IMG/VR virus record: IMGVR_UViG_2778261121_000001
Coordinates: 1 to 55,913 of that record
DNA length: 55,913 bases
Source of the DNA: a virus
Taxonomy: Duplodnaviria > Heunggongvirae > Uroviricota > Caudoviricetes
Direction: 5' to 3' (one strand)
The position numbers were made by a program, and so were the translations under genes. The notes under the pieces are model-generated. The model worked only from the letters and a program-made list of their open reading frames with translations. It made no database searches and was not told where the DNA came from. Position 1 is the stretch's first letter, and each line of letters begins with the position of its first letter. Shown here one piece after another: positions 22,911 to 49,211 of the stretch.

Positions 22911-23368
22911 TTGCTCACCTCATAGATGACCGGTCGATGGTGAGAGTCAGCTAAAGCGGCACGGAGTCGAGGATCGTGCACCAGCGCAGCGATAAGCAGA
23001 TCGCCTTTATGCTCCGCTAATGTGCGCTTAATATGCTTCTCATAACTGGTGCCATTCGGTACAAGATGAAGCCAGTCATAATCAACGCCAAAATCTTTCA
23101 GCCATCGTTTAGTTGGCGCTTCAAGAGTTTCAGAGCGGCTACTGATAAGCACCACTTCAGCCCCTGAGCGAGCAAAACCACGCAACATACGGCTGGTGGG
23201 GAAAATGAGTTCATCACCGGCAATGAGCTGGCCTGCATCCGCGTCAGATACTGATTTACGATGGCTGGCATTTGCCAGCACACCTTCAATTTCGCATAAG
23301 ACATACATACCTCTTGCCATATCACACCGCCACTGGAACCTTGATCCACGGTAGAGGGTCATAGCCAA
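22907..23368 (-). CDS. hypothetical protein (153 aa)
   Basis: ORF in track between the DHFR and thymidylate synthase genes. Confidence 0.4.
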   Translation of the reverse strand: MAMTLYRGSRFQWRCDMARGMYVLCEIEGVLANASHRKSVSDADAGQLIAGDELIFPTSRMLRGFARSGAEVVLISSRSETLEAPTKRWLKDFGVDYDWLHLVPNGTSYEKHIKRTLAEHKGDLLIAALVHDPRLRAALADSHHRPVIYEVSK

Positions 23369-24425
23369 GAATTAAAACCTCGTCCCATTTGAAATCATCC
23401 AACTCTGACCATTCATGAGGGAAAATAACGACCGGATCTGAATGCTCTGGAGCCTGTCGTTTCATTAGCTCACACACACCTTCCATGTGGTTGTTGTACA
23501 AATGCACGTCAAAGCCAAAATGCACAAATGCACCGGCCATGTGACCCGTAATCTTCGCGAGAAAATGAGTGAGAATGCCATAGCCAGCAATATTGAATGG
23601 CATACCAACAAAAGTGTCTACGCTACGCTGTACGAGGCAGGAGTTGAGGATGCGTTTGGGGATTCCAAGTTCATCCAGTTCAGCTTCAGTAACACTGCCG
23701 TCCATATCCAGATCGTATAGCATCTTGGTGTAGATAGACTCGTAACCGAGGCGACTGTGTTGAAGACCAATGTCAGTTGCCATCGTTAAACGGGTTTCAA
23801 AATCCAGCTCACGACTCCACAAAGAGAAGACAAAGTGGCAAGGTGGCAGTTTCATATCCTCAAGCTCGCCTACGTTCCATGCGTTAAGCATGATGCGACG
23901 ATCGGTAGGGTTCGTGCGCAGTGTATCGACAATACGCTGTAGCTGATCGATTTCACGGGACAGCACTACGCGATCTTCACTGATACCCAGGTATCCCTCG
24001 ACTTTGTACCCGCGTTCACGGAAAGTATCGATCTTGCTCAGATATTCACTATGGCTCACGATTCGGGTATCTTCCCATCGACGCCACTGCTTACCGTAAA
24101 CCGGCCCCAAATCGCCATTCTCATCGGCCCATGCATCCCAAATCTTAACGCCGTTATCCTTGAGAAATTGGATGTTTCCCGTGCCTTTCAGATACCACTC
24201 AAGTTCGACAAGTAGTGGCTTAAGATTTACCGCCTTTCCAGAAATAAGCGGCACAGTCCCACCAGTAAGCATGTAGTAAGAGGGAACGTAGCAGGTGCTT
24301 AAAGTACCAGTGCCTGTGCGATCATCAGCCTGCACGCCGCTTTTAAGCACCGTCTCAATAACTTTTGCATACGATGCGTTTGTTACCTGACCGTTCGTAT
24401 GCTCTCGATTCAAAAGGAGTGACAC
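23322..24425 (-). CDS. thymidylate synthase family protein with two large insertions
   Basis: DRTGTGT, WADENGDLGPVYGKQWR and catalytic PPCH motifs conserved; 367 aa versus ~264 for ThyA; GTG start with GAGG Shine-Dalgarno. Confidence 0.85.
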   Translation of the reverse strand: MSLLLNREHTNGQVTNASYAKVIETVLKSGVQADDRTGTGTLSTCYVPSYYMLTGGTVPLISGKAVNLKPLLVELEWYLKGTGNIQFLKDNGVKIWDAWADENGDLGPVYGKQWRRWEDTRIVSHSEYLSKIDTFRERGYKVEGYLGISEDRVVLSREIDQLQRIVDTLRTNPTDRRIMLNAWNVGELEDMKLPPCHFVFSLWSRELDFETRLTMATDIGLQHSRLGYESIYTKMLYDLDMDGSVTEAELDELGIPKRILNSCLVQRSVDTFVGMPFNIAGYGILTHFLAKITGHMAGAFVHFGFDVHLYNNHMEGVCELMKRQAPEHSDPVVIFPHEWSELDDFKWDEVLILGYDPLPWIKVPVAV

Positions 24426-39643: not shown

Positions 39644-41983
39644 TTACTCTTCTACTGACTCGGTGGGATTGTCTTTTGATCTCCGGTCGTCGATTGCCTG
39701 TAAAGCCGCAATGATTTCAGCTAGTGGCTTCTCCCGATACATCTCGACGATCTGTGATTTGGTGTATTTCTTGTCACCAATTTCTACTCGACCGCTGGCG
39801 TTCTTTGGCAGGTATCCTTCTTCCAGCATGTACTCGACGAGCGATTCGATAACGTCGAGGCCACGAGTAGGATCGAAGTAGAATTTCCAGGTGCATTTGC
39901 CATACGGTGGTGCAACTTTGTTTTTGATGCATTCTGCGCCTACGTCCTGGCCGATCTTCTCTTTACCATCCTTCATCACCGATGCACCAAGACGGATACG
40001 TACAGAAGCGTAGAACTTCGGTGAATCTCCACCTGGCGACGTAGTAGGGTCGCCAAACATTACACCGATTTTTGTGCGAACCTGATTCAAGAAGATGATG
40101 CAGGCGTTGTATTTGCGTGCCCACAAAGCCAGAGTAGGGAAGTTCGCACTCGTCGCACGAGCCAGTGCCGTATTGTCGTTCATGTTTAGCTGATCTTTGT
40201 CTTTGGCTGTGCCTTCAGCCATCTTTTCGAACTTCTCGGCTTTGGAGTTCGGAACCATAGACGCAAGAGAGTCAGCCACGATACAGATAGGTGCTGATTC
40301 GGGGATAAGCTCTTCATCACGAACCAATTTAAGTATTGTGCCGATCAACTCTACAGAGTCTTCGAAGGTATCTGGCTGCTTGTACACCCACTGACCGTCA
40401 TCCTCATCTGCGTTCAGGCCATTGGCTACAGCCAGGCCAACGTCAAAACTGTTTTCATGATCGAGGAATACCGCCAGACCATCTTGTTTTTGAGCGGAGA
40501 TCATCGCTGCTGTTGCAAGGAATGTGTTGTGGCTGATAATCCCGTTAGACCAGAAAGAGTGTGTTTCCGGCATCGCTACGTCGAACGTTGGTGCTTCACC
40601 TTCCTCAATAGCCACGACTTCGTCGTAGAACAAGTTAGAGCCAATTACCGCTGCCAGTTGTGCAAACAGATGCTCGTTAAAACGATTCTTTCTGCCAATG
40701 AAGGAGACATAGATTTCTCGCAGTTTGTCTATTCCGACACGATCGCCGCGGCCAATAACGTGGTCTACCAGAGCGTAGTCTTCACGGGTGGTCTTGGTGA
40801 GCGACTCGTAGAGTGATTTCACTAAGCCGCTGATGTGCGGAACATAGCCTGAGTAAGTGCGGTCAAAACCAATGTCCCGTTTGGTTGCCACTGATAAACG
40901 TGCCGGAGATTCGAAACCAATCGTTGACAGAAAAAGGTCGTAATTAGAGCCACTGAATGACAGCCGGTAATATGTATTTTCATAACCCGCGACGTGTTTT
41001 TCAGAGATAGTTGACGTAATCCCCAGATTCAGGAGCATGAGGCGAATTTGCTGTAGCAGCAGCCCACTCGCGCTCACAACCTCAATGCAGCGACCATCAT
41101 TGACGTGGCATTCCAGCTCAAAGTAGCCGCGAAGGAATGCAATTTGAGCCTCGCTATTGGCGCGACGCACACTCAACGGAACCTGCTTGCCAGCAGCTTT
41201 CTCATACTCCAGACCATATTCTTTAAAAAGCAGCGAACGCACCTCTTTGCTAAACAGCACATGGTCTTCCGAGCCGTTATGTTTTCTCGTAACTGGCATC
41301 TTGTCTGATACCAGCGAAATGAGGCGGTAGTACTCATCCTTGATGAAAGGATCTGTGTTAGAAAAATTCACTGAATTTTCAGAGGCCACGTATCCGTCAG
41401 CAATTAAATAGCCCATCAGTTTTGCGATATTGGCATCCAGGTGCTGATCGCCGAATTGATGTGTGCCAACCATTGAAGGAATCGTGTCGCCTACACTGAT
41501 TTTTTCAGCATGTCGCCAGACGACATTACCTAAGTCGTCAACCACACGGATTGGGTGACGGAACGTAGCCTCGATATAACCGCCTGATGCCAGCTTAATA
41601 CGCTTGAATTTGCGATGGTTGTTCCATGTCAGGTGTGAGGTCTTCTCTATCACGCCATTTTCATTGATGAGTCCAACGTTATGCTCTACATCGCGAGTAG
41701 TGCATGTCGCTTTGTACCCTTCAATCTCAAACAACTCTTTCACTGTTACCATTCCACGCTCCGTCAGCAGCATGGTGTCTGCGGTAACACATTTCCCCGC
41801 ACTTGGAGGACCGAATACTTCGACGATACGACCACATGGGAAGCCGCCATCGTAACGACCGGAAATAGCTTTGTTTAACGGAGGAAAGCCTGTGTCAATC
41901 CAATGAGTTACTTTCTGAATTTCGTCGTTGCTACCGATTTTCTTTTTCAGAGCAAGTGCCAGTGCGGATTTTCCTTTTGCCAT
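39644..41983 (-). CDS. RecA-like recombinase interrupted by an intein
   Basis: Exteins (64 + 293 aa) give a RecA-sized protein with Walker A GPPSAGK|TFLAT split by the intein. Confidence 0.8.
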   Translation of the reverse strand: MAKGKSALALALKKKIGSNDEIQKVTHWIDTGFPPLNKAISGRYDGGFPCGRIVEVFGPPSAGKCVTADTMLLTERGMVTVKELFEIEGYKATCTTRDVEHNVGLINENGVIEKTSHLTWNNHRKFKRIKLASGGYIEATFRHPIRVVDDLGNVVWRHAEKISVGDTIPSMVGTHQFGDQHLDANIAKLMGYLIADGYVASENSVNFSNTDPFIKDEYYRLISLVSDKMPVTRKHNGSEDHVLFSKEVRSLLFKEYGLEYEKAAGKQVPLSVRRANSEAQIAFLRGYFELECHVNDGRCIEVVSASGLLLQQIRLMLLNLGITSTISEKHVAGYENTYYRLSFSGSNYDLFLSTIGFESPARLSVATKRDIGFDRTYSGYVPHISGLVKSLYESLTKTTREDYALVDHVIGRGDRVGIDKLREIYVSFIGRKNRFNEHLFAQLAAVIGSNLFYDEVVAIEEGEAPTFDVAMPETHSFWSNGIISHNTFLATAAMISAQKQDGLAVFLDHENSFDVGLAVANGLNADEDDGQWVYKQPDTFEDSVELIGTILKLVRDEELIPESAPICIVADSLASMVPNSKAEKFEKMAEGTAKDKDQLNMNDNTALARATSANFPTLALWARKYNACIIFLNQVRTKIGVMFGDPTTSPGGDSPKFYASVRIRLGASVMKDGKEKIGQDVGAECIKNKVAPPYGKCTWKFYFDPTRGLDVIESLVEYMLEEGYLPKNASGRVEIGDKKYTKSQIVEMYREKPLAEIIAALQAIDDRRSKDNPTESVEE
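40526..41791 (-). mobile_element. intein with LAGLIDADG homing-endonuclease domain (422 aa)
   Basis: Starts with Cys after GPPSAGK, ends with HN before Thr; LAGLIDADG-like blocks (LMGYLIADGYV, FLRGYFELECHV). Confidence 0.7.
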
Positions 41984-44959: not shown

Positions 44960-46129
44960 TCACGTCTTAATAGTTTCTGCTACGTCGGCTAATATAGCTT
45001 CTAGTCGTTCTCCCTCTTCAGGTCTGAAGTAAAGAATGTTGGGGTTAAACCCGTAAAAGACAGTAACGTCAAGGTCTGGAAGATACTCCTTCCTGCCGAC
45101 CAAATCGGATGGCTTGTTTTTGTTGTTAAACAATGAAGTTGCCCGGCTGCCACACGTCAGCACATAGGTCGGACGCACCAGATTGATCTCTTCACGCATA
45201 AAGTCGGTGAACTGGCCGATCTCGTCTTTGGTGTAGTCTTTTTCTTTGTCTTTAACCTTCTTGCAAACGCCTGTGACATAGAGATCGCCCATGCGTAAAT
45301 CTCCAGCCGTCAATAGCTTGGCCTTAAAATCGTCGTATCCGTTCTCCATAAAGTAACCGGTTCGAGCATCATTGCCGTTCGCATTGTCCAGAATGATCAT
45401 GATTTTCGGCTTAATACCAATGCTGGGGCGGATTAGTTCATCACCTAAGCCCATTTCAGCCGCCATCCGTGTCATGAGCACGTTAATCTCAGCCGAACGT
45501 TTGGGGTTCATCTCAAACGGACGTGAGGCTTTAACTGCGTCTATGACAAGATTTCCCATCAATTCAGCCTGGTCGCGTAGGCGCTCTGGATCAGTTGCTG
45601 GCAGACTACCTGGCTCGATGGATGCAAACGCCCCTACTTTTTGCAGCGATTCGCGCACTCGACTATTACAGGCACGTTTCTCGACAGCTTCTTCGAATTG
45701 CGCAAGTGACTCGAATTTGCCACCAACCTTTTCTCGCGCTCTCATGATGGCCTGGCAGCCATTCTCAGAACACCCCTTCACAGCAGAGAAGGGCGCATAC
45801 AGCACCTGGCTGCCATCTTCAAGCGTGCGGATCTCGATTCGGTTAGATGACACGTTAACGTCTGGTGGCAATACGCGAATACCATAGGTCAGCGCATCTT
45901 TAACCAGCCCCTGGTGTTTATCTTCGCCAAGAATAGTGAGAGCAGCAGCGAAAAACTCTGCGGGATAATGAGTTTTCAACCACATAGATTGATAACTGAT
46001 CAAGGAGTAAGCAACAGAGTGTGATTTGTTAAAGGCGTATCCACCGAACTTTTCAAAGGCGTCCCATATTTCCTGGGCTTTCTCAGGGCTAAGACCTTCC
46101 TGCTCGGAAATAACTTTTGCAATTTTCAT
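44960..46129 (-). CDS. DNA polymerase III alpha (DnaE) C-terminal fragment
   Basis: Begins MKIAKVI...FEKFGGYAFNKSHS, aligning with the DnaE fingers region; own ATG in the conserved GGGAAAACACATG context. Confidence 0.75.
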   Translation of the reverse strand: MKIAKVISEQEGLSPEKAQEIWDAFEKFGGYAFNKSHSVAYSLISYQSMWLKTHYPAEFFAAALTILGEDKHQGLVKDALTYGIRVLPPDVNVSSNRIEIRTLEDGSQVLYAPFSAVKGCSENGCQAIMRAREKVGGKFESLAQFEEAVEKRACNSRVRESLQKVGAFASIEPGSLPATDPERLRDQAELMGNLVIDAVKASRPFEMNPKRSAEINVLMTRMAAEMGLGDELIRPSIGIKPKIMIILDNANGNDARTGYFMENGYDDFKAKLLTAGDLRMGDLYVTGVCKKVKDKEKDYTKDEIGQFTDFMREEINLVRPTYVLTCGSRATSLFNNKNKPSDLVGRKEYLPDLDVTVFYGFNPNILYFRPEEGERLEAILADVAETIKT

Positions 46130-46149
46130 GTGTTTTCCCGTTGCTAGCT

Positions 46150-46851
46150 TCAAATGCTTGCTTTTTTTAAGATATTTGCGATTTGAGTGTTAGATATGCC
46201 GAATTTTTCTCGCAACTTTTCGTAGGTTGCGCCAGCTTTGCGCAAGGCGACCACTTCAGCTCTTGCTTCGTCATCCAGCTTTTTGGATGCCCTTGAGGCA
46301 ACGATCGGCCCACCAATACGTGCCCATTTCTTCCCGGTGACGATATGGTGAATATAAAGCTCAGTTAAACCATATTCGGCCGCGAGGTCTTTGTTCAGAG
46401 CACCCTCTGACTTTTTAATGCGAATAGCAATGACGACTTCGTTGGTTAGCTTGGCGTTGTAGCGCCTCTCACCAAACTCAACGGTATCGTGTGCAATGGC
46501 GTCAGCCATGTTGTCGACTTGAGTGCCATACGCGAGATTGAAGGGCGCATTGTTTGATGGTTTACCGTCAAGATGACGAATAAGTAAGCCTTCTGGTCGT
46601 TCTCCGTGGAATGCAGTTGCTACCAGATAATGAACTGTGCGGTCGTATTTGACGCCGTTGACGCTTAGTTTCACGCCAAGATGTCCAAAATCATTGATTA
46701 CGCGAGGTTTTAGGATTTGCCCCTTCTTCACCCATTCGCCCCCTTTGGGGGCTGTTTGTATAACATCTAATGAGCGAATGCGTCCTAAACTGGATGCTTC
46801 GTAATAACCTTCAAATTCAGGAATAGATTTCCAAACTTCTTCCACCGTCAA
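46150..46851 (-). CDS. HNH homing endonuclease inserted within dnaE
   Basis: 233-aa ORF in a different frame from both dnaE halves, overlapping the upstream stop and ending 18 nt before the downstream ATG; family assigned from the split-gene context, no HNH or NUMOD motif checked. Confidence 0.6.
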   Translation of the reverse strand: MTVEEVWKSIPEFEGYYEASSLGRIRSLDVIQTAPKGGEWVKKGQILKPRVINDFGHLGVKLSVNGVKYDRTVHYLVATAFHGERPEGLLIRHLDGKPSNNAPFNLAYGTQVDNMADAIAHDTVEFGERRYNAKLTNEVVIAIRIKKSEGALNKDLAAEYGLTELYIHHIVTGKKWARIGGPIVASRASKKLDDEARAEVVALRKAGATYEKLREKFGISNTQIANILKKASI

Positions 46852-49211
46852 ACTCCAAAATCAACAATATCAGCGTTGTCACTCATCGCTTCGTCATAGG
46901 TCCTGCGTTTGCCGTCAGAGCACAGCAGCATGGCCTTTTTGTGGACTTCTACTGTGCTTCCGTCTTCAAGTGACAGTGTCACCCAGCCTGCTTGTGCTCG
47001 TTCTACAAAATCGCTGCCGATCGCTTTCATCTTTTCCATGTTCTTCTTACCGATGGCGGAACGCAGAGCATCAGCCTCCGCCATAGAGAATCCAGCGAGC
47101 ACACGAGAGCTTTTCATAATTTGCTCTTGATAGAGCAAAACGCCGTTAGTTTCTTTGGTTGTTTCCTCAAGACGAGGATGAATTGAATGTGGAGCCATAA
47201 AACCTTTGGCGACAGAAACATAGTCATCCAACATGCCTGACTGAATTGGCCCCGGCCGGAAGAGCGCAGTTGTAGCAACAACCGTTTTAAAGCTCATTGG
47301 CTCAATTCCACCACCTAAATCTTTAAGCAGCTTGCGCATTGGGCCTGATTCAAGCTGGAAAACACCTTGAGTGTACCCAGCAGCAAAACCATCCAGCACC
47401 TTGCGATCCTCAAGAGAAATGGCATCAAGATTGATATCTTCACCTGTGTTCTCTTTTATGTAGCGTTTTGCACTATCGAGCAAATCGAGAGTTGCCAGGC
47501 CAAGCACGTCTAGCTTAATTAGGCCCATAGCCTCGCAGTAACGCTTGTCAAATGCGATACAACGCGCGTCACCACGGCGTTCAACCGGTGTACGTTCTGT
47601 CAGAGGAACACCTGCTACGATCATCCCTGCCGCATGTCTACCAAAGCCACGCATAAGGCTTTGTAACTTGCAGGCTGCATTGAATGCATCAGGATATTTT
47701 GTTGCGTATTTGTCGAGACTTGCCAGTTGTTCGCGCAGCTCTTCCAATGGAAGGCTATCATCCTCGACGTTCTTCAGTTCTTTTGATACCGCCATATCTG
47801 CGGACTCCACACCATAAATACGAGCGGTGTCACGTAGTGCAGAGGCTGCGCCCAGGTAGGTGAAGTTCGGAATGCCTGCAACGTAATCTTCGCCGTAGCG
47901 TTCATTCAGATACTCGATCACCTCATGGCGACGTGCCTGGCTGAAGTCCAAGTCCGCATCTGGCAAGTCGAGACGCTCAGGGTTGATGAAACGCTCAAAC
48001 AGAAGACCGTGACGGATTGGGTCGACGTTGGTTATGCCTATGCACCACGCCACCAGAGAACCGGCAGAGGAACCACGACCAGGCCCGACAGGAATGCCAG
48101 TTTCACGGCTGTGATTCATCAGATCGCGTACCATCAGGAAGTAACCACAAAATCCCAGGCGAGTCAGCGTGTCCATTTCGTACTTAAGCCGTTCAACATA
48201 AATCCTGTTCTCAGAAGCCGGTGGTGTGTAGCCAAACTCTTTTGTGGTAAGACGTTTACGCAGCCCAGCAACGGCCAGTTTCATCAGCGTTGCAGGCTCG
48301 TCGTCTGCCATCTTTGGCAGTGCTGGTGGCAATTCATGCCAGCGCCATGTGCAGGCATCGATAATGGTATCCTGCGTTGTTGAGGCCATTGCAGCTGTTA
48401 CCGGCACATCCATGCGAACGGAGAAGGCTTTAAGAGCCTCAAGGAGATGGCGGCGACCATTGACGGCGTTATCTCGCTGGTGGGGGATACGCAGACGATG
48501 CGGCTGGTCGATTTTGATGTTGTTCGTAACCATGTGCGCAATGTCTTTAATGTCTGCATCGTCGATCGATTCGTAATAAGCGGGATAGAACGCTACTGGC
48601 TCTATTTTCAGTGCTCTGGCGACTTTCATCGCCCGGACGTTAATCTGGTCGTAGAATGGTGTAGGGTGCGGATAAACCACACTATAGAAGTTGTCTTTTC
48701 CACCTGCTGTAATCAGTGAGCTTATGATTTTTGCAAAATCGTTGCGTTGGAACACGCTACCGATGTCGGAAGTGAGCAGGATGATGTTGCCTTTGGCATA
48801 TGTAGAAACCAACTGTTCGAGCGAGAGACGCGGTACAAAGTAGAACTGTTCTCGTGTGTTGGCCACCGTCATTAGTTCGCAGATGTCGCGATATCCTTGC
48901 TCATTTTTAATTAGAGCGGTAAACGAGTAGTTACGTCCTCGCTCTAATGATTCCATACATCCCTTAGACTCTTTAGCAAGTTTAGCCCGGTACTCGTATG
49001 TGGGATCATCAACGATATTTAGTTTCACACCACAAATAACCGCCATGTCGTCACCAGCGGCACGTTGTAGTGGAATAACACTCGCAATATTCATGCTATC
49101 TGCTGAAATTACAGCGGTGTAGCCAGCTTCTCTGGCAATCTTCACCGCGTTTTCCGCTTTTAAAGCCGACTCCCCAAGTGAGAAGTCAGTTCGAACCATC
49201 AGTGCCTTCAT
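46848..49211 (-). CDS. DNA polymerase III alpha (DnaE) N-terminal fragment (PHP and polymerase core)
   Basis: 787 aa aligning with the DnaE N-terminal two thirds; conserved start context. Confidence 0.85.
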   Translation of the reverse strand: MKALMVRTDFSLGESALKAENAVKIAREAGYTAVISADSMNIASVIPLQRAAGDDMAVICGVKLNIVDDPTYEYRAKLAKESKGCMESLERGRNYSFTALIKNEQGYRDICELMTVANTREQFYFVPRLSLEQLVSTYAKGNIILLTSDIGSVFQRNDFAKIISSLITAGGKDNFYSVVYPHPTPFYDQINVRAMKVARALKIEPVAFYPAYYESIDDADIKDIAHMVTNNIKIDQPHRLRIPHQRDNAVNGRRHLLEALKAFSVRMDVPVTAAMASTTQDTIIDACTWRWHELPPALPKMADDEPATLMKLAVAGLRKRLTTKEFGYTPPASENRIYVERLKYEMDTLTRLGFCGYFLMVRDLMNHSRETGIPVGPGRGSSAGSLVAWCIGITNVDPIRHGLLFERFINPERLDLPDADLDFSQARRHEVIEYLNERYGEDYVAGIPNFTYLGAASALRDTARIYGVESADMAVSKELKNVEDDSLPLEELREQLASLDKYATKYPDAFNAACKLQSLMRGFGRHAAGMIVAGVPLTERTPVERRGDARCIAFDKRYCEAMGLIKLDVLGLATLDLLDSAKRYIKENTGEDINLDAISLEDRKVLDGFAAGYTQGVFQLESGPMRKLLKDLGGGIEPMSFKTVVATTALFRPGPIQSGMLDDYVSVAKGFMAPHSIHPRLEETTKETNGVLLYQEQIMKSSRVLAGFSMAEADALRSAIGKKNMEKMKAIGSDFVERAQAGWVTLSLEDGSTVEVHKKAMLLCSDGKRRTYDEAMSDNADIVDFGV

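Follow-up and report, generated by a model that had tools for sequence, protein, structure and literature searches.

A two-gene DNA polymerase III of an SSU5-like phage-plasmid with a probable vestigial split intein at its break and an HNH endonuclease gene in the gap

Introduction

Inteins and homing endonucleases are usually viewed as elements that cycle through invasion, decay and precise loss. Among the described systems closest to the one studied here, the 'fractured genes' of Dassa et al. (2009) form a set that includes three metagenomic DnaE loci (PMC2677866). At the nrdA/mobE locus of Aeromonas phage Aeh1, short unique tails at the new protein termini are essential for assembly, and a degenerate intein has been raised there as a speculation (PMC3045599). 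For the split gp43 polymerase gene of T4-like Aeromonas phages (PMC2988022), a seg endonuclease has been considered a possible invader of a gene that was already split. Here we analyze a stretch of 55,913 nucleotides (positions 1 to 55,913 of IMG/VR virus record IMGVR_UViG_2778261121_000001, Caudoviricetes; hereafter the window), in which dnaE, the gene for the alpha subunit of DNA polymerase III (Pol III), is carried in two pieces. As read from its sequence, the locus is the three-cistron dnaE of an SSU5-like phage-plasmid, encoding DnaE-N, an HNH homing endonuclease and DnaE-C. We consider it probable that the two DnaE proteins form a two-subunit polymerase clamped by a vestigial, non-splicing split intein, with the HNH gene as a lodger in the gap. 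Neither this locus nor a vestigial split intein with the role of an assembly domain was described in the open-access literature that we searched.

Results

The break in the polymerase and its added residues

On the minus strand of the window, DnaE-N, the HNH protein and DnaE-C are encoded in that order by three open reading frames (ORFs) in three different frames. The polymerase gene in two pieces, described by the original prediction from the letters of the window, is confirmed by the division of the Pfam domains between the halves: PHP, DNA_pol3_alpha and DNA_pol3_finger in DnaE-N, and HHH_6 with a weak UDG match in DnaE-C. Taq and E. coli Pol III alpha match the window DnaE at E values of 1e-127 to 1e-116, and the PHP, palm, fingers and HhH beta-binding domains of Pol III alpha were all found. 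The break lies in the fingers domain, between ...FVERAQAG and GLSPEKAQ..., with no extein residue lost, and extra residues stand on both of its sides, 45 at the end of DnaE-N (the tail) and 11 at the start of DnaE-C (the head). Split genes generally carry ~45 plus ~11 residues inserted between FV.GA..G and G[ML]SE, at a point flanked by residues 788 and 789 of Taq Pol III alpha.

The tail-plus-head module was found at distant split loci, with the head in 12/12 and the full tail in 11/12 (the tail of L134 is cut by an apparent frameshift), and the head consensus MK[IV]..[IV]..L.DG recurs in 28 clusters at 50% identity. Among contiguous genes, the module is absent from 48 of the 49 clusters at that identity; likewise, GKK and FNKSH are 40-41 aa apart in 50/50 contiguous distant loci, leaving the module absent there. 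Contiguous genes that hold the module, all in-frame, belong to the SSU5 supergroup only (SSU5, R41, Cyrano and Xenorhabdus types); given this restriction, they look like secondary re-fusions. The intact dnaE of related phage-plasmids (SSU5, PhiR41_1, Cyrano), a comparison that was originally suggested, is not the ancestral form; it carries the intein remnant in-frame and looks re-fused. We also rejected a simple homology of the tail to intact DnaE, since only SSU5-type fused genes carry the tail and canonical DnaE does not. The tail has a net negative charge over its last 20 residues in 9/9 lineages, and the head a net positive charge over its first 6 in 8/9.

Relation of the module to DnaE split inteins

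A profile of 57 positions built from 12 tail-plus-head modules (A4) was searched against all PDB sequences. The top 13 matches were all cyanobacterial DnaE split inteins with E values from 7.9e-7 to 1.2e-4, including 7QIL (7.9e-7), Npu 2KEQ (9.5e-6) and Ssp 1ZD7 (1.9e-5), and the alignment covered intein residues ~56-109, crossing the natural split site (...LDLMRVDNLPN / IKIA...). With a second profile (A6) made from six lineages, all of them outside the SSU5 group, the top 10 matches were again DnaE inteins (best E value 3.5e-6). The tail corresponds to approximately residues 55-102 of the cyanobacterial DnaE inteins, and the head to the first strand of the C-terminal fragment (IntC) of the DnaE intein (IKIA...). 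Structure prediction for fused-type modules gave a Hint-like fold with a predicted local distance difference test (pLDDT) score of 89.3; in a Foldseek search with this model the top 10 matches were inteins, with Npu DnaE first at a probability of 1.0. A model of the full-length protein places the module between two helices of the fingers, as a beta mini-domain predicted with confidence. Similarity to the Hint superfamily that is significant in sequence or in fold is therefore present, and we read the tail and the head together as the middle of a DnaE-type split intein, comprising the C-terminal half of its N-terminal fragment (IntN), the natural split site and the first IntC strand. The gap at the break has the classical position of the endonuclease in an intein. 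The tail had been described beforehand as ~40 unrelated residues; it is indeed foreign to canonical DnaE (45 aa), but it is not junk, since together with the head it appears to be a vestigial split intein.

The module is small and beta-rich, the similarity of single sequences is insignificant, and Pfam matched no Hint family in individual modules. These features would suit an old lineage-specific insertion domain that resembles Hint by convergence and was later split there as a permissive loop. Beside the matches of both profiles and of the predicted fold to DnaE inteins, we regard this origin as very improbable.

Of the first ~54 residues of an intein, which include block A and Cys1, the module has none; it starts with W in the window and with W, Q, M, F or V across modules, never with Cys or Ser. 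The TxxH motif is degenerate (VHKK in the window, VH(K/R)x in modules), the head lacks ~25 IntC residues with blocks F and G and the terminal Asn, and the +1 residue is the extein Gly. The features that mark a functional split intein (blocks A and B in the N half; blocks F and G, Asn and a +1 Cys, Ser or Thr in the C half) are thus wanting at the window locus. Since every splicing residue is missing, established intein chemistry excludes splicing, and the module is predicted to be unable to splice. A functional though atypically small split intein, which would join the halves by trans-splicing into a single polypeptide like those of cyanobacterial DnaE and the 'fractured genes', would agree with the homology of the module to DnaE split inteins, with its break at their natural split site and with the true split inteins of the relatives L018 and L019, whose IntN starts with C[FL]L and has T.DH.F and whose IntC ends in ...VVHN followed by S. 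Besides the missing Cys/Ser1, TxxH, blocks F/G, terminal Asn and a splicing-competent +1 residue, this explanation faces a module of ~56 residues against 120-140 in the matched solved mini-inteins and split inteins, and fused alleles that hold the module in-frame as a permanent insert. It is hardly credible.

Split alleles with and without an HNH gene

The 80 SSU5-like viral contigs include 42 in which the gene is contiguous and 30 in which both fragments were resolved. These split alleles comprise 10 with the window-type HNH gene, 9 with a second HNH type and 11 with no endonuclease gene, where the spacer measures 65-84 nt. The second type (L013, L015, L153, L031/L064) has an N-terminal helix-turn-helix (HTH), mostly NUMOD3, and a C-terminal HNH_3 domain, and shares only a 52-aa HNH core with the HNH protein of the window; Pfam was run on L153 and L064, and L013 and L015 were assigned from precomputed hits and mutual similarity. 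The spacer ends are identical in L063, which is empty, and in L064 or L031, which are occupied, showing that the second-type HNH gene sits within a pre-existing 65-nt intercistronic spacer. The split alleles that have no HNH gene keep both ORFs and their ribosome-binding sites.

The same break extends to distant lineages. Loci with 35-45% identity have the order N piece, endonuclease, C piece and an identical break, and their C pieces start with MKIVSVTPLNNG, MKIKSITPLNDG or MKITKIISEKPG; the break and the MK[IV] head are the same in loci just 35-44% identical. L122-type loci carry a homolog of the window HNH protein (42% identity). Three further split loci of this type have gaps under the size of the 191-aa HNH gene (L133 and L136, 229 nt; L134, 288 nt), and these short gaps possibly hold a decayed endonuclease. 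With the C piece as query, we found numerous proteins of 380-400 aa that stand alone and share only 33-45% identity with it; the matches of the protein homolog search were banded by query length, and a search with the tail profile gave short fragments only. After clustering at 50% identity, 28 clusters have a stand-alone full-length C piece starting at the same site and 49 are contiguous, the two states being scattered over a rough tree of the clusters. Fitch mapping on a neighbor-joining (NJ) tree of these states, which bears on whether the split is ancestral, was uninformative (22 steps versus 23.6 with shuffled states).

The original prediction had the HNH gene split dnaE. More probably the gene is a lodger and not the cause of the split, since the same break is seen beside another HNH family and with empty spacers that hold no endonuclease, and since one HNH gene lies inside a spacer that was already there. 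The contrary explanation is that dnaE was intact until an HNH gene entered and divided it, leaving a tail and a head that are incidental and have no intein ancestry, as in the Aeh1 nrdA::mobE type. It draws on the exact position of the HNH gene between the halves, on a mobile cassette that turned a fused Escherichia-type allele into a split one and on known precedents (PMC2988022). However, it does not fit the recurrence of the break with another HNH family and with empty 65-84 nt spacers, nor a tail and head kept in lineages of 35-45% identity and matching DnaE inteins specifically in both sequence and fold; we judge it unlikely. The split is probably ancient and intein-derived, with endonuclease genes that come and go in the gap.

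Mobility of the HNH gene

The HNH protein of the window matches HNH_3 (39.7 bits) and NUMOD4 (39.9 bits) of Pfam, both over the cut-off, and HTH_23 under it. Its sole PDB sequence match is I-HmuI (1U3E; E value 1.2e-9, residues 5-171). Between genera, the synonymous divergence (dS) of the HNH gene is 0.02-0.14 versus 0.7-2.0 in the flanking dnaE, approximately ten-fold lower. Sliding-window identity and informative sites define a mosaic tract around the gene. From 49211 to ~47260 and from ~46030 to 44960, the window is 97-100% identical to the uninterrupted E. coli phage-plasmids PhiR41_1 and CMS-2020a. The central part (47250-46031, ~1.2 kb) is 98-100% identical to a K. quasipneumoniae allele (L009) whose own backbone is 72-86% identical to the window, and 81 consecutive informative sites from 47199 to 46031 are of this donor type. 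The HNH cassette was thus imported into a backbone of Escherichia type from an allele of Klebsiella type, together with ~475 bp of dnaE from its flanks, and a mosaic tract centered on the HNH gene is the signature of homing with co-conversion. Taken together, this I-HmuI-like HNH gene has a presence/absence polymorphism at a single site with signs of lateral spread and co-conversion, consistent with a selfish lodger that would spread through break repair with co-conversion.

Spread of the arrangement and selection on the two halves

The closest records to the window are 62-kb Escherichia albertii plasmids (98% identity). Of 746 plasmid records with this dnaE, 243 also have the HNH gene, at one place in each and with an identity of at least 95% in 236; none of the 5,426 complete E. 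coli genomes has the HNH gene, and 244 of them have a homologous dnaE. We compared 8 interrupted alleles from Escherichia, Klebsiella, Enterobacter, Salmonella and one Klebsiella phage, leaving out the low-quality record L011, which contains frameshifts. The 787, 231 and 389 codons are unchanged in 8/8 of them, without frameshifts. The frameshift or sequencing error that was originally to be checked is excluded by these invariant codon counts, as is an assembly artefact by the 243 independent plasmid records that share the arrangement.

Across the 8 alleles, the Nei-Gojobori ratio of nonsynonymous to synonymous divergence (dN/dS) is 0.03-0.09 for DnaE-N, 0.01-0.05 for DnaE-C and 0.09-0.20 for the HNH gene. 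For pairs that plausibly share the interruption by descent, the values for the N and C pieces are 0.056 and 0.048 (Kgri-Ehor) and 0.033 and 0.031 (window-E. albertii). These ratios indicate purifying selection on both DnaE halves. A non-functional, decaying split gene in an element that uses the host Pol III would be in line with the IS100-disrupted dnaE of some E. coli phage-plasmids, with several RefSeq tables that give no product for the C piece and with nearest relatives that are reduced 62-kb plasmids. Against decay, dN/dS of the halves is 0.01-0.09 with no frameshifts or length changes in 8 alleles from 5 genera, the endonuclease-free split alleles retain both ORFs and ribosome-binding sites, and a full-length stand-alone C piece is found in the 28 clusters mentioned above; decay is therefore improbable. 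The earlier alternative between two polypeptides and an inactive replicase is accordingly narrowed by this selection and by the intact ORFs of the HNH-free split alleles, and two polypeptides are strongly favored.

Gene boundaries and annotation

The features of the locus are listed in Table 1. The HNH ORF can be extended to an alternative TTG start (46150-46851), which gives the overlap between the dnaE-N stop and the HNH start that was first noticed. The GTG at 46845 is more likely to be the start, leaving a 2-nt gap and no overlap, as indicated by GGAG 7 nt upstream (46853-46856), by the PGAP start in relatives and by the L122 homolog, which starts with MENWK at the equivalent point. For dnaE-C, a start of its own had been proposed correctly. 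An upstream TTG (ORF 44960-46153, 397 aa) was rejected, since Klebsiella alleles have a 1-nt indel between this TTG and the ATG at 46129. The start context GG(G)AAA(A)CACATG of dnaE-C also occurs in the endonuclease-free split alleles L017 and L097. A group I or II intron was rejected as well, in agreement with the original statement that there is no group I intron: an Rfam scan of 45600-47400 with E values up to 10 found no intron and gave two chance-level hits only, and just 2 nt and 20 nt of non-coding sequence lie beside the HNH ORF. A scan for consensus promoters and terminators found no minus-strand signal within the locus, so that dnaE-N, the HNH gene and dnaE-C are likely on a single transcript.

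Table 1 Positions of the dnaE locus features in the window
Feature	Position	Strand	Description
dnaE-N	46848..49211	-	787 aa; PHP, palm, thumb and most of fingers; intein remnant at the end
Putative vestigial IntN	46851..46985	-	Final 45 codons of dnaE-N (WVTLSLEDGSTVEVHKKAMLLCSDGKRRTYDEAMSDNADIVDFGV)
HNH gene	46150..46845	-	Free-standing; 231 aa from GTG; NUMOD4, HNH_3, weak C-terminal HTH; I-HmuI-like
Spacer	46130..46149	-	20 nt, HNH stop to dnaE-C start; GGGA Shine-Dalgarno-like motif at 46136-46139
Putative vestigial IntC	46097..46129	-	dnaE-C codons 1-11 (MKIAKVISEQE)
dnaE-C	44960..46129	-	389 aa; end of fingers, HhH beta-binding domain, UDG-like domain
UDG-superfamily domain	44963..45412 (approximate)	-	C-terminus of dnaE-C; weak Pfam UDG in the window
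Imported recombination (co-conversion) tract	46031..47250	.	~375 bp of upstream dnaE, HNH cassette and ~100 bp of downstream dnaE

Where bacterial DnaE has its OB and tau-binding domains, this DnaE family has a domain like uracil-DNA glycosylase (UDG). A UDG hit is recorded for most distant relatives, and the model shows an alpha/beta domain at residues ~1020-1168. From this UDG-superfamily domain, annotation pipelines label the whole C subunit 'uracil-DNA glycosylase'. The RefSeq gene tables behind L005-L010 list dnaE-N and the HNH gene and skip the locus tag at dnaE-C (for example, RS00155 to RS00165); there, the C subunit may have a pseudogene flag or no protein accession. The C subunit should be neither called 'uracil-DNA glycosylase' nor left out of gene tables.

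Neighboring genes and relatives

Within the RecA gene of the window (39644-41983, minus strand, 779 aa) lies a complete intein that includes an endonuclease domain of the LAGLIDADG family (Pfam Intein_splicing 73-486, LAGLIDADG_3 279-356, RecA 484-703), so that a live-looking RecA intein lies a few kb from the dead DnaE one in the same replication module. The relative L019 likewise has a RecA intein. A thymidylate synthase ORF (23322-24425, minus strand, 367 aa) matches its Pfam family in two stretches; it exceeds the 266-position model by ~100 aa and may carry an insertion.

In L018 (1634-7650) and L019 (1811-7623), dnaE is in three pieces, with two complete split inteins at other sites (IntN starting with C[FL]L.G; IntC ending in VVHN followed by S or VHN followed by C). 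Their first gap holds an ORF of 321-339 aa with no assigned family, and their second gap an HNH_3 gene. L013/L014 have a GIY-YIG/NUMOD3 endonuclease gene (572-1393) between a CobS-like ATPase gene and a sigma-70-like gene just upstream of dnaE, a further sign that the replication module draws homing endonucleases. In the 62-kb E. albertii plasmids L005/L180 (NZ_CP126909.1), hdeA and hdeB lie directly downstream of dnaE-C, and the window departs from these plasmids downstream of dnaE. In the first 50 kb of their annotation, replication and recombination genes are listed, but genes for capsid, tail or terminase are not obvious; these plasmids may be phage-plasmids that are reduced and defective. 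Six proteins are odd fusions (P0017, P0009, P0020, P0368, P0376 and P0399; HNH+DnaE-C, PHP+HHH_6, gp32+HHH_6 and DnaE-N+RecA), which probably are products of deletions, frameshifts or mis-assemblies.

Discussion

We propose that dnaE-N, the HNH gene and dnaE-C would be co-transcribed and translated separately, and that DnaE-N and DnaE-C would assemble non-covalently into an active Pol III alpha. The tail and the head would form a half-Hint mini-domain in trans beside the fingers-domain interface and clamp the halves through strand complementation, with the acidic end of the tail facing the basic head. The turnover of endonucleases, their loss and, now and then, a re-fusion (SSU5, R41 and Cyrano types) would have come later. 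In the association of split inteins, an anionic IntN meets a cationic IntC in a 'capture' step (PMC11766414); the acidic tail and basic head parallel this step and suggest a clamp in trans, and by this analogy the module may have a clamping role.

Several points weigh against this proposal. The intein homology rests on family profiles and on the predicted structure of fused-type modules: the window module alone, searched against the PDB by phmmer, gave no significant match (a DnaE intein was second, with an E value of 0.22), and the Foldseek E values are weak (0.09) for a small domain. The mean identity of the module is 36% and 35% versus 47-50% for the polymerase core, and this faster evolution fits a scaffold and, equally, weak constraint. 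The association and the polymerase activity of the two polypeptides are predictions from sequence. Function does not require the break, as seen from the fused alleles, and even with no module the halves might be held together by their large fingers-domain interface. A large part of the deep dS between alleles could be older than the HNH gene at this site. IS100 interrupts dnaE in the E. coli plasmids NZ_CP070074.1 and NZ_CP035843.1, which are otherwise similar phage-plasmids, so that the polymerase may be dispensable for plasmid maintenance. Finally, the order of the evolutionary events is one that we infer, and the NJ tree has low resolution.

The clamp can be taken further. The half-Hint module would then be an exapted, dead and minimized split intein selected solely as a high-affinity heterodimerization clamp, and the unit from the tail through its stop, the endonuclease gene and its start to the head may still move as a cassette into module-free or fused alleles. 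We give this extension somewhat less than an even chance. If true, no earlier case would be documented in which a split intein lives on in nature as a protein-assembly domain, a fate speculated for Aeh1 NrdA. The locus suggests a different ending to the usual cycle of mobile elements: the splicing chemistry is gone, the gene is still broken, and the association half has apparently been kept as a clamp. It would thereby support, at the level of sequence and fold, what Crona et al. (2011) could raise only as a speculation, and would make the idea testable in a tractable Enterobacterales system with natural controls, namely alleles split with the HNH gene, split without it and re-fused. With its 45 + 11 residues, such a naturally non-splicing IntN/IntC pair could also be used as a small heterodimerization tag. 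Apart from the module, the locus shows HNH-linked gene conversion carrying DNA between Klebsiella-type and Escherichia-type phage-plasmids.

Among known systems, the 'fractured genes' (PMC2677866) resemble the window locus in having the pieces at one locus and in the same orientation with an endonuclease gene in the gap, in the intein-derived peptides at the two new termini and in a phage-type DnaE host; the stage of endonuclease loss that their model predicts is seen here in L017, L063 and L082. However, their split inteins have six Hint motifs and five catalytic residues, whereas ~60% of the intein and all catalytic residues are gone here, and their endonucleases are GIY-YIG or Vsr-like, whereas that of the window is HNH. 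The cyanobacterial DnaE split inteins (Npu and Ssp; 2KEQ, 4KL5, 1ZD7) are the best sequence and fold match of the module, reside in the same host protein, Pol III alpha, and are broken at the homologous intein point. They differ in that the intein is complete and trans-splices, in that the two genes are unlinked with no endonuclease gene between them, and in the insertion site, which precedes Cys-Phe-Asn (PMC3585056), 20 residues downstream of the site here.

In Aeh1 nrdA/mobE (Friedrich 2007; Crona 2011, PMC3045599), an HNH gene likewise stands between the halves of an essential replication-related enzyme. No intein homology has been shown there, whereas here it is detectable in the sequence, and the arrangement is spread over a whole phage family; moreover, the endonuclease insertion that causes an Aeh1-type split does not account for the break in the window. 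I-HmuI (1U3E), the HNH nicking endonuclease of the intron in the DNA polymerase gene of Bacillus phage SPO1, is the sole solved relative of the HNH protein and has the same order of N-terminal beta region, HNH, helical linker and HTH as well as a DNA polymerase gene as its target, but it is encoded inside a group I intron, whereas the HNH gene of the window is free-standing in an intercistronic gap with no intron. Split gp43 of the T4-like Aeromonas phages 25 and 44RR (Petrov 2010, cited in PMC2988022) is likewise a two-subunit replicative polymerase, and its halves co-purify and are active; gp43 is, however, a family B polymerase, and no vestigial intein at its break is reported in the text consulted. 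The window locus thus joins features of the 'fractured genes' with those of the intein-less Aeh1 nrdA::mobE split.

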